From the sequence record PZ452610.1: a DNA stretch of 64,000 nucleotides. One strand, written 5' to 3'. Both the position numbers and the translations under genes were made by a program. Of this stretch, positions 59,259-61,882 are shown piece by piece. The notes under the pieces were generated by a model. That model was not told the origin of the DNA. It saw only the letters and a list, made by a program, of their open reading frames with translations, and ran no database searches. The stretch comes from a phage. The stretch's first letter is position 1; each line of letters opens with the position of its first letter.

Positions 59259-59567
59259 TCAATTAGAAAATAAATTTATCCAAGTTTTTTCTTTAATCAA
59301 AAATGGGTCAGAACTAAACGCCATTAAACTTTGAGTGATTAATCCCTTAAATGGCCCATCAATAAATTCCATTTTGAAATGCGGAATACTAGTCATCAAC
59401 CGTGCGTTAGGAGCAGTACAAAGAACCTGCTGCCCTGCGAACGGACCTTTAGTCAAACGGTATCGTTTAGGTTTAAAATGGTAAATCTCGTAATTTTCTA
59501 CAAGAGCCCTTTTATTGCATACTGGGCTGTTATAACAATATTCAAAAACTTCAATAGTGGTCATCAT
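59259..59567 (-). CDS. Hypothetical protein, 102 aa
   Basis: ORF. Confidence 0.45.
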   Translation of the reverse strand: MMTTIEVFEYCYNSPVCNKRALVENYEIYHFKPKRYRLTKGPFAGQQVLCTAPNARLMTSIPHFKMEFIDGPFKGLITQSLMAFSSDPFLIKEKTWINLFSN

Positions 59568-60103
59568 TGCATTCCAATCACAAAAAATTGAGGACGAGCA
59601 TTACCGCCGATGCAATATTTGCTTTTGCAGCAGTACTGTACTGTTTTAATATGGACATTGTAAATCTTATCCATATCAGGAGCTTTAATAGGCTCGTCAA
59701 TTATATACAGAATACGAGAAAGCGTTAATCCACGGAATTTAGAACCTTCATTGCCAATAAAACTACGAACAGAATCAGTAAATAAACGGAATCGAATATC
59801 ATCGCTAGAATAACGAGAAAATTCTTTTTCAATGTTACCAGCAGAAATTTTAGCATAAGCTGAAGTATTAGAAAGAACAATAACTGTTCCGCCATCATAC
59901 AGCCAATTAGCAGCAAAGTTAGTCACAGCAATTGATTTACCGGATTGTCTGCCACCGTCTAAACGAAGTGTACAGTACTGCTTGAGTACGTCTTCAAACG
60001 GTGGGATATAACCGTTCTTACAAATTTCTTCTACTCTAGCATCAGAATGGTGTGTAAAAGCATTCATCAGGGATAGATAAGGTCCAGTTAAAAATGTTCT
60101 CAT
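59564..60103 (-). CDS. Hypothetical protein, 179 aa, possible P-loop
   Basis: GGRQSGKS Walker-A-like and ILYIIDEP Walker-B-like segments. Confidence 0.5.
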   Translation of the reverse strand: MRTFLTGPYLSLMNAFTHHSDARVEEICKNGYIPPFEDVLKQYCTLRLDGGRQSGKSIAVTNFAANWLYDGGTVIVLSNTSAYAKISAGNIEKEFSRYSSDDIRFRLFTDSVRSFIGNEGSKFRGLTLSRILYIIDEPIKAPDMDKIYNVHIKTVQYCCKSKYCIGGNARPQFFVIGMQ

Positions 60104-60276
60104 TTAGTTTCTCTTTTATGTTGGGCCATTCCGTGGCACATGTTAGGTCCTTCGACTCGCTATGTAAACCCATTACCGCACTTGGGCTCGACATTATTAC
60201 AGGTTGGAAAAGGTACATCACTCAGAGGACTCGACGTTCATGAGGAGAGGTTGCGTTTCCCTTTATTAGGCAAGAA

Positions 60277-60606
60277 TTATACTCTAGGCTTTTGAGCTTG
60301 TTTGGTATTGGATTCCCATGCGGCTTTGGTAATTTTGTTAGTGGCATAACCAAAGGCATTAGATAGAACACCTTTAGAGTTGAATACATCCAATCCAATA
60401 AGTACACCGGCTGTGTTAAATTTAGGAGCAAAGTACGCATTAGTTTTAGAAAGAGCTTTTTTCAATTCAGGGTCTTGAACCAAACCATCAAAAACGCCTT
60501 TACTATTTACTTTATATGTTACTTTGGGATTTTTACCTTCTTCGATAGCAGCTTTCTGTTCCGCAGATAATGTAACTTCAGTGATAAACTCCTGATATGT
60601 TTTCAT
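60277..60606 (-). CDS. Internal-protein-like head protein with capsid targeting sequence
   Basis: 109 aa; N-terminus MKTYQEFITE matches the T4 IPII/IPIII capsid-targeting leader; adjacent to denV. Confidence 0.65.
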   Translation of the reverse strand: MKTYQEFITEVTLSAEQKAAIEEGKNPKVTYKVNSKGVFDGLVQDPELKKALSKTNAYFAPKFNTAGVLIGLDVFNSKGVLSNAFGYATNKITKAAWESNTKQAQKPRV

Positions 60607-60614
60607 TTTGTTCC

Positions 60615-61028
60615 TTAGTAAATTGATTTACCATAGTATTTGTACCAAGTCGGACGTTGAGCAATTTTTTCATCTAAGCGTGCTTGACTTATCGCAATGG
60701 ACGCTTCGGACGGGACGTAATTATTACGAAATTCTACAGGAATGTCGGAAATATCCTGGACTGTCGTGTCCTTGATTTTGAAACCACGTTTCAAGCATTC
60801 GGCGATTAGCTCGATTTGACGTAAACGTAAAAATTCGAGTTTGTCGTAAAAGAATGTTACGTGACCTGTGCCTAAGATAAATGTTGGAGAGATTTTAAAA
60901 TCCTTTACACGTTTACCGTTTTGAACATGTTTACGGACTGCACCAAATACGCGTGGTAATTCACGATACTCAGCCATAAGATGTTGGTCGGACAGTTCAG
61001 AAACAAGTGTTAAATTGATACGAGTCAT
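60615..61028 (-). CDS. denV: Endonuclease V (DenV), pyrimidine-dimer DNA glycosylase
   Basis: [35 protein letters not shown]... matches T4 DenV; ATG 61028 with SD GGAGGAAA. Confidence 0.95.
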
Positions 61029-61086
61029 AATTTCCTCCAAGTAGTTGATGAATGTATAGTATCAAAACTCTTGGAGGAAGTAAACA

Positions 61087-61368
61087 CTATTTTTCTGAAG
61101 CGCCTGAAATATATTTTTCAAGACGTTGTTTCATCAGCGAGCCGTTCTTAGCGATTTCTTCCGGTTTATCGCACATACGCAACAAGGCTTCAAGCTTAAC
61201 GATATCACTGGTGCGCTCAAATTTGCGAGTATCTATCTTACTGGCAAGTTCAGAAATACGTGCTAATAGACTTTCAGCTTCAACCAAAGCTGCACCTAGC
61301 TTAGTTGCAAATGTGTCAGTAGCTTCGTTAAGAATAGATTCTGATAAAAATTCACTATATGTTTTCAT
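61087..61368 (-). CDS. Internal-protein-like protein, about 93 aa, with capsid targeting sequence
   Basis: ATG 61368 gives [10 protein letters not shown]...; overlaps lysozyme stop (ATGA). Confidence 0.55.
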
Positions 61369-61853
61369 ATATACGCTTTCCAAGTTCCTGTTTTAAATGT
61401 TGAGATTACGCGTTTCGCTCGATTAGGTGTCTGACGGTACCATTTAGATTGGGCTAGATTTACTGCCGCTTCATCCCAACGTTTCTGTTGAAGCATACGA
61501 AGAGAATTAGTAAAACCAGCGACGCCTGCTACACCCATTTGGAAGACCATATTGACCAATGCACATCGACGAACCGCATCTAAAGAATCATATACCGGTT
61601 TAAGTTTAGCATTACCCAAGATTCCGCGAACGGCTTTATCAACGTCTTCATTAAATAGCTTTTCAGCCTCATCAAGGGTAATTGTACCGTTGCATTTACG
61701 TCCGATCATTCTGTCAAGTTCAGCTTTAGCTACGGCTAAAGACGGGTTCTTTGTTACTAAATGGCCTATGCCAATCGTCCAAAAGCCTTCAGTGTCTTTG
61801 TATAAAGTCAGTCTAAGACCTTCGTCATTACGAAGCATTTCAAATATATTCAT
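61365..61853 (-). CDS. e: Lysozyme e (endolysin)
   Basis: [32 protein letters not shown]... matches T4 lysozyme; catalytic E11/D20/T26 context present. Confidence 0.97.
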
Positions 61854-61882
61854 AATACCTCCCACGTTTATAGGAGGTATTT
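61854..61882 (-). promoter_or_regulatory. SD-sequestering hairpin upstream of gene e
   Basis: Minus strand ACCTCC-TATAAACGTG-GGAGGT places SD GGGAGGT in a stem; same arrangement described for T4 gene e. Confidence 0.5.

Follow-up and report, generated by a model that had tools for sequence, protein, structure and literature searches.

The spacer analyzed here occupies positions 60104-60276 of a 64,000-nt stretch of DNA (the window) from an RB69-type Mosigvirus, a T4-like phage, and extends from the stop codon of a 109-aa ip-like gene to the ATG of a vs.8 homologue. The genes flanking it are all on the minus strand, in the order e, denV, ip-like gene, 173-bp spacer, vs.8, vs.7 and vs.6, and the tested stretch is 100% identical to E. 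coli O157 typing phages 3, 6 and 13. Coordinates of these genes and of the features described below are collected in Table 1. The original prediction for this spacer, made from the letters of the window, described a GC-rich island without a convincing ORF. Both parts were borne out: GC content is 45.7%, compared with 37.2% for the whole window, which places the spacer at the 98.6th percentile of all 173-bp windows, and no conserved ORF runs across it.

Table 1. Genes around the spacer and parts of the RNA element, in window coordinates; RNA sequences are given for the minus strand.
Feature	Position	Strand	Evidence or remark
Lysozyme gene e	61365-61865	-	
denV	60615-61040	-	Pfam Pyr_excise
ip-like gene, 109 aa, RB69ORF123c-like, resembles internal proteins; upstream of spacer	60277-60606	-	ORF list, RB69 annotation
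Whole structured RNA element, about 150 nt	60120-60270	-	Covariance model R1: 155 bits, E = 1e-44
P1 helix, closes 5′ hairpin; 60264-60260 AAAGG pairs with 60213-60209 CCUUU	60209-60264	-	All 5 pairs covary
Pseudoknot 5′ strand CGC, in internal loop of 5′ hairpin; pairs with 60158-60160	60253-60255	-	RNAalifold
5′ hairpin interior: P1a plus extension, variable tip with one CTCGAC copy	60215-60251	-	
P2 mini-hairpin ACCU-GUAAUA-AUGU, GNRA-like hexaloop	60191-60204	-	
P4 hairpin GAGCCC-AAGUGCGGUAAU-GGGUUU	60166-60189	-	Near-invariant loop NNGNGCGGUAA
Variable hairpin region, T4-like 3′ extension	60138-60165	-	Indels of 1, 5 and 32 nt among relatives
Pseudoknot 3′ strand GCG, 5 nt after P4	60158-60160	-	
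3′ hairpin GCCA-CGGAA-UGGC	60125-60137	-	Conserved in T4-likes
vs.8 homologue, 179 aa, P-loop protein; downstream of spacer	59564-60103	-	ORF list, PHROG 1488, RB69 annotation

BLAST found DNA homologous to the spacer in 1060 phage records, and a 39-nt core was also found in rV5-like phages, which otherwise share no sequence with the T4-likes. A set of copies was compiled by scanning viral contigs and metagenomes with short patterns and passing the matches through a covariance model; after chance matches to these patterns (about two thirds of those in viral contigs and 35 of 64 in metagenomes) had been dropped by eye or by the model, it comprised 67 copies, 64 of them distinct. Matches to the covariance model had E-values from 1e-6 to 1e-50, and chance-pattern controls gave none; within the window, model R1 has a single match. 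Carriers include T4-likes of several genera, Vequintavirus-type phages, the N4-like Klebsiella phage Pylas, some 150-kb coliphages, Pseudomonas phage KIL1 and uncultured phages. An exact 17-mer from the core had 15 matches in 185,579 bacterial and archaeal genomes, none of them with the extended motif; as all of these are chance matches, the element was not seen in cellular genomes. Complete copies occur in tandem in some 175-kb T4-like phages (L049 5048-5309, L055 8962-9224, L164 304-565), where P4 has diverged in the second copy (CCAGUCC.. or UCAGCCC..), which also has a pseudoknot pair of its own, ACCA/UGGU. The search pattern (GUCGAGCC..GCGGUAA) also matched the anticodon-arm stretch of a tRNA that is recognized by Rfam (40 bits) and not called by ARAGORN (L060 2162-2244, the same in L062); since model R1 gives no match there, we take this to be a coincidence.

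The center of the element is a P2-P4 core of about 28 nucleotides that are near-invariant in the 64 distinct copies (CC-ACCU-GUAAUA-AGGU-C-GAGCC-NNGNGCGGUAA), and the helices flanking it have fully diverged across lineages. A stretch of roughly 33 nt spanning P2 and P4 is nearly identical between phages that have no other DNA similarity. The P2 stem ACCU/AGGU is kept in 63-64 of 64 distinct copies, with the compensated variants GCCA..UGGU in KIL1 and GCCU..AGGC elsewhere, and its loop follows the form G-N-R-N-N-A. The window itself has a U in place of G at 60193, alone among the 64 distinct copies, which breaks one P2 pair (ACCU/AUGU). In P4, G..G.GCGGUAA is invariant in 62-64 of the 64 distinct copies, from unrelated phage families. 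An additional helix, P3 (CYAACC/GGUUAG), had been proposed for the Pylas group and was rejected, as it showed no covariation and conflicts with the covarying P2.

Outside the core, pairing is maintained while the bases change. P1 occurs as AAAGG/CCUUU, AAAGC/GCUUU, AAAGA/UCUUU, GGGAA/UUCCC (T4) and GGGAG/CUCCC. Within the 5′ hairpin, pair 20-56 is C-G or A-U across copies, a C-G pair (29/48) is deleted on both sides in loci L011 and L020, and T4 has a shorter form (CCUCAU/AUGAGG), and rV5-like phages have CACAU/AUGUG. When the 13 long-form copies were folded jointly with RNAalifold, a long-range helix was added between columns 16-18 and 111-113 (CCG/CGG, CGC/GCG, CAC/GUG); because this helix crosses P1, the fold is a pseudoknot. 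It is 100% paired in these 13 copies, with changes on both sides in two of its three pairs. Across phages, about ten distinct complementary pairs were found: CCG/CGG, CGCCG/CGGUG, CGC/GCG and CAC/GUG, and, at the equivalent place in other lineages, CUG/CAG, CCUG/CAGG, ACCA/UGGU, CCAG/CUGG, GUGAGGG/CCCUUAC, UGAGG/CCUCA and CGG/CCG.

The T4-likes alone have a 3′ extension, which stops about 20 nt short of the vs.8 start codon. The stem of its variable hairpin is CUAGC/GCUAG, for which Karam-type phages have CCAUC/GAUGG or CCACC/GGUGG, and in L011 and L020 this hairpin carries a 32-nt insertion (GGCAAGGAGCCCAAUUCGAUUCUAGGAAGGAA) with the rest of the element conserved, behavior that would be expected for the variable arm of a structured RNA. 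Of the 13 long-form copies, two have an A·C mismatch in the 3′ hairpin, which is otherwise invariant. A weak match to a promoter (TTTACA-17-TAACAT, 9/12) at 60140-60168 on the minus strand shares bases with the variable hairpin and the 3′ strand of P4. The GGGTTTACAT stretch is kept in the long-form copies and absent in T4, and we therefore attribute its conservation to P4.

Compensatory changes were already visible in a MAFFT alignment of the T4-like copies. Among the 13 long-form relatives, 98.1% of cells were paired and P1, P1a and the pseudoknot had pairs altered on both sides, while controls in which the 3′ partners were slid by 1-3 columns in the same alignment reached at most 46%. In a plain MAFFT alignment of T4-group with long-form copies, all five P1 pairs differ between the two groups yet remain complementary (AAAGG/CCUUU versus GGGAA/UUCCC). 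In the alignment of the 64 distinct copies, 90.9% of cells were paired and 16 of 26 pairs had both-side changes; the covariation score was 0.234, compared with 0.092 for shuffles (a score reached by 0 of 500) and at most 0.074 for slid controls. As this 64-copy alignment was fitted to the model, its pair counts lean toward structure, and we give more weight to the MAFFT-based results. Two P4 pairs, at 82/105 and 84/103, are G·U, for which the plus strand would have A·C; the fold is thus on the minus strand, as are the flanking genes. Single-sequence minimum free energy, calculated with the pseudoknot ignored, was not more stable than that of shuffles for either strand (z = +2.1 and +1.6), so thermodynamics alone would miss the element. 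The spacer is thus a conserved structured RNA with a pseudoknot, a result that is strongly supported. Because its structure is conserved across phage families, the view that this region is simply the 5′ UTR of vs.8 with no conserved structure, which would have refuted the original prediction, fails.

Another feature that had drawn attention to the spacer was a set of three CTCGAC-containing motifs, regarded as direct repeats. Two copies are exact (60187-60192 and 60230-60235) and one is imperfect (GACTCGC, 60154-60160). The hexamer is not enriched, with 14 occurrences in the window versus 15.3 expected, and relatives have kept just one of the three. This copy, at 60187-60192, corresponds to GGUCGAGCC, the invariant sequence that joins hairpin P2 to P4. 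At 60230-60235 the copy forms the tip of the 5′ hairpin, a variable sequence that is GUCGCG, GUCGUG or AUUG in other phages, and the imperfect copy falls in the variable hairpin. With one copy conserved and no enrichment, the repeats are a by-product rather than the feature itself. Three readings had been offered for the spacer. The small RNA is backed by the conserved minus-strand fold, its compensatory changes and the pseudoknot, whereas the other two found no support: a protein-binding DNA site made of CTCGAC repeats is at odds with the lack of conservation of those repeats, and a mobile-element scar with the intact state of an element under selection, for which truncations in phages F27 and LYE-01 are the sole rearrangements seen. 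The original prediction therefore picked out the RNA for a partly wrong reason. A feature acting as DNA, whether a CTCGAC-binding site, a replication origin or an insertion scar, would fit the spacing of the two exact copies, 43 bp apart, and a recombination-prone junction at which the upstream gene varies between phages and truncations occur. Nevertheless, the state of the hexamer, the compensatory changes and G·U pairs that point to a single-stranded minus-strand fold, and the chance-only matches of the exact core 17-mer in cellular genomes make any such reading very improbable.

We also considered that the conserved nucleotides might be coding. In T4, the homologous DNA begins just past the denV stop codon and has been assigned to vs.8 as its first 37-40 codons, so that the T4 copy (L103 1817-1945, NC_000866 about 64,816-64,944; also L001 1487-1597) lies inside the annotated gene, and T4 records give vs.8 a length of 216-219 aa with a start within the RNA element. 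The window has a 59-aa ORF at 60042-60221 that could likewise be taken for a small peptide, but it has no Pfam match. Across the 34 distinct T4-like copies, however, the spacing between core and vs.8 ATG takes all three phases (14, 13 and 7 copies), and just four copies, two of them T4 itself, can be read in the vs.8 frame through the core without a stop. A TAG interrupts the frame of the extension in many Tequatroviruses, the window has an in-frame TAA directly before the vs.8 ATG, indels of 1, 2, 5, 17 and 32 nt are found, and in rV5-like phages these nucleotides fall between genes. The PHROG 1488 profile, with a length of 177, covers residues 3-179 of the short Vs.8. An N-terminal extension of Vs.8 or a small peptide encoded here is accordingly the least credible of the explanations, one to which we assign next to no probability. 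Given that neither frame nor phase is conserved, that a TAA precedes the ATG and that the profile fits the short form, the long T4 vs.8 appears to be an annotation artefact, and the true T4 start is probably an internal Met (MRTFLTGPY...). As to what Vs.8 does, Pfam gave no family, the PHROG label is unknown function, and PDB searches returned only weak similarity (E about 0.1) to a DNA translocase coupling protein.

Alternatively, the RNA may be a cis-acting leader of vs.8, such as a riboswitch, a protein- or tRNA-binding operator or a thermosensor, that controls the start codon about 20 nt downstream. In T4-likes the element is nearly always directly upstream of vs.8, with the core 81-122 nt from its ATG in the 34 distinct copies. 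The roughly 28 near-invariant core positions, the invariant unpaired nucleotides (seen in 64 distinct copies) and the tandem arrangement resemble riboswitch aptamers. The 3′ hairpin also stays with vs.8 after the 5′ half has been lost. This is seen in Mosigvirus F27 (L170 620-740) and Tequatrovirus LYE-01 (L169 660-745), in which only the 3′ part persists beside vs.8, with the 3′ hairpin retained and the 5′ half and core missing; in F27 an early-promoter-like sequence of T4 type (GTTTACA..TAGTATATT) takes the place of the 5′ half, and in LYE-01 the 5′ half is likewise swapped for an early-promoter-like cassette. These truncations indicate that the junction is a site of modular exchange and that the core is dispensable in F27 and LYE-01, and, with the 3′ extension surviving by itself, it may act in cis on the expression of vs.8 in T4-likes.

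Several observations speak against a leader as the main function. A riboswitch would be expected to accompany one class of downstream gene and to have an expression platform; vs.8 follows the element in T4-likes only, no downstream gene is conserved elsewhere, and in locus L014 the gene downstream is ip-like. The window has no conserved pairing that would sequester a Shine-Dalgarno sequence and no conserved terminator, and no intrinsic terminator was found on either strand of 60104-60276. In other phages a promoter (L002, L043) or a terminator (L045) stands between the element and the next ORF, or the element is embedded among tRNAs. We thus regard a vs.8 leader as rather unlikely.

Outside the T4-likes, the element is in or beside tRNA clusters, on the same strand as the tRNAs: between tRNA-Thr and tRNA-Gly in L135, starting 12 nt past a tRNA in L167, and, in the rV5-like and Pylas-like groups, ahead of tRNA-Arg by 180-650 nt. 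In navn (L002), an rV5-like phage, it is intergenic, upstream of a tRNA cluster, and a promoter is predicted between the element and the next ORF. A near-consensus sigma-70 promoter is predicted about 40 nt upstream of the element in L043, with a second promoter directly after it, and in L045 an intrinsic terminator is predicted at its 3′ end. The tRNA context, the promoters, the terminator and the tandem copies together suggest an RNA gene acting on its own rather than a leader for one protein. In the 64-kb window ARAGORN called no tRNA gene, though the element is tied to tRNA clusters in other families.

Other repeated sequences were observed in the same regions. In 117-137-kb phages (L043 about 520-545 and 655-680, L139, L125) a direct repeat of about 22 nt, CCCyTAGAGGGCTTGAwAGTGC, flanks the element; rV5-like phages have the upstream copy only. 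In Pylas (L035 10410-10740; also L032, L037, L054, L067, L119 and L165) the element is within an ORF-free array of modules, which are bracketed by inverted repeats of roughly 19 bp (CACAACAGGUAAGAGCAUU ... AGUGCUCUUUCCGUUGUGG) that covary between modules. Some inserts of this type of array have tRNA T-arm-like sequences, and a match to the module at L035 10437-10515 is also present in the 72-81-kb region of T4-like phages, several of them, from Citrobacter, Salmonella and Enterobacter. This suggests that phage tRNA regions share a pool of small RNA modules.

Could the element simply be a structured stretch of intercistronic RNA at which RNases cut, or which shields the flanking messages, with no other activity? 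Its position within a run of minus-strand genes would suit such a role, as would the long inverted repeats of the Pylas-type array, which resemble processing stems. However, generic protection does not need about 28 near-invariant and often unpaired nucleotides kept across unrelated families and hosts, nor a pseudoknot maintained by covariation, and we consider a pure processing or stability element improbable.

Comparison with known RNAs gave no family to which the element could be assigned. Searches of Rfam 15 with E-values up to 10, using the window, T4, rV5-like and L135 versions, returned only noise from unrelated families, and scans of nine loci at Rfam gathering thresholds found just tRNAs and group I introns, located elsewhere. 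At the element itself, whether in the window or at any other locus, ARAGORN and Rfam RF00005 called no tRNA or tmRNA, although neighboring true tRNAs were called. Literature searches by gene name, literal sequence and topic found no description of it. As far as these tools can tell, this structured RNA is previously undescribed. The large RNAs GOLLD and ROOL are often encoded by phages or prophages next to tRNA genes. Like them, the element is an orphan, highly structured, associated with phages and tRNA genes, and defined by covariation; they differ from it in length (about 500-800 nt versus about 100-150 nt) and are mostly from Firmicutes, environmental or gut phages, and in four lineages the element has no Rfam match to them.

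A similar address is known from T4, in which RNAC and RNAD (species 1 and 2) are small structured RNAs from the tRNA region with a function that is still unknown (PMC3014915; PMC9697503). The T4 copy of the element differs from these in being about 6 kb from the tRNA genes and within an annotated CDS. Homology to rnaC/rnaD was examined and rejected: over 11.5 kb of T4 (63.0-74.5 kb), R1 matches the denV/vs.8 junction only, with nothing at rnaC/rnaD (L103 7909-8172) even at E up to 10.

Certain parts of the core are reminiscent of tRNA-binding RNAs. The double T-loop module that binds the tRNA elbow consists of the pentamers AGNNA...UGNNA with six invariant residues (PMC3664808). The element has UGUAA- and GGUAA-type pentamers and a tRNA-related context, but agreement with this consensus is only partial: the first is UGUAA in most copies, AGUGA in KIL1, UAUAA in L045 and UGUAG in three variants, and the P4-loop pentamer GGUAA has G at position 1, unlike the T-loop consensus. 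Moreover, the P2 segment is better explained by a 4-bp hairpin with compensated variants, and the element has no RNase P core. Its topology is similar to that of the double T-loop module and of the T-box stem I tip, in which conserved purine-rich bases precede a helix of 5-6 bp that is capped by a conserved loop of 12-13 nt. A T-box specifier loop and an antiterminator or sequestrator are absent, however, with no Rfam T-box match in four lineages and no conserved terminator/antiterminator in the window. With tRNAs themselves the element shares location and orientation, a D-loop-like P4 loop (..GCGGUAA..) and a CUGUAA in the P2 loop, which is also present in the anticodon loop of a neighboring phage tRNA-Tyr, but it has no cloverleaf and its arms are not in the order of those of a tRNA. 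It presumably also resembles the 16S 530 loop, E. coli RNase P RNA (GUGCGGUAA) and the UGUAAU of SRP Alu, similarities on which we do not rely.

Our best guess is a stable RNA that acts in trans and is tied to tRNA biology. We hold it to be probable, with moderate confidence, that the element is a functional non-coding RNA module of the minus strand that works through a conserved, tRNA-linked partner. The RNA would be made as, or cut from, a polycistronic transcript, as are tRNAs and T4 RNAC/RNAD, and would present its invariant loops in trans to a highly conserved cellular partner linked to tRNA biology. That the partner is itself highly conserved is suggested by the extreme conservation of unpaired bases among phages of E. 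coli, Klebsiella and Pseudomonas. Judging from genomic context, candidates include a tRNA, a tRNA-processing or -modifying enzyme or a tRNA-targeting nuclease; the tRNA system is the most economical guess, which we infer from the tRNA address. In T4-likes, the module may have moved beside vs.8 and acquired its lineage-specific 3′ extension, which could in addition affect how vs.8 is expressed. Published RNA-seq or Northern evidence for a discrete RNA from this site was not found, the T4 review and an omics paper included.

A more specific version of the trans-acting reading can be put forward only tentatively, and we would sooner doubt it than rely on it. It proposes a new class of phage RNA, carried by virulent phages of Gammaproteobacteria (T4-like, rV5-like, N4-like and Pseudomonas KIL1-type), whose invariant loops dock to or mimic the tRNA system. 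The RNA might be a tRNA-elbow binder of the T-loop type, or a decoy whose tRNA-Tyr/His-like UGU loop and D-loop-like hairpin would engage a tRNA-modifying enzyme or a tRNA-cleaving defense nuclease. If this were true, the element would belong to the same toolkit as phage tRNA genes.

According to a review of T4 published in 2010, no riboswitch or trans-acting RNA had been functionally characterized in this phage, and RNAC and RNAD were unexplained (PMC3014915). The element described here gives the reference phage T4 a third strongly conserved structured RNA, which lies under what appears to be a mis-set vs.8 start codon. For annotation, this means that the start of vs.8 is to be corrected in T4-type genomes and that an RNA feature is to be added in more than a thousand phage records. 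As an RNA that is common to unrelated phage families and linked to tRNA clusters, the element may offer a tractable entry to roles of phage tRNA regions beyond the supply of tRNAs.
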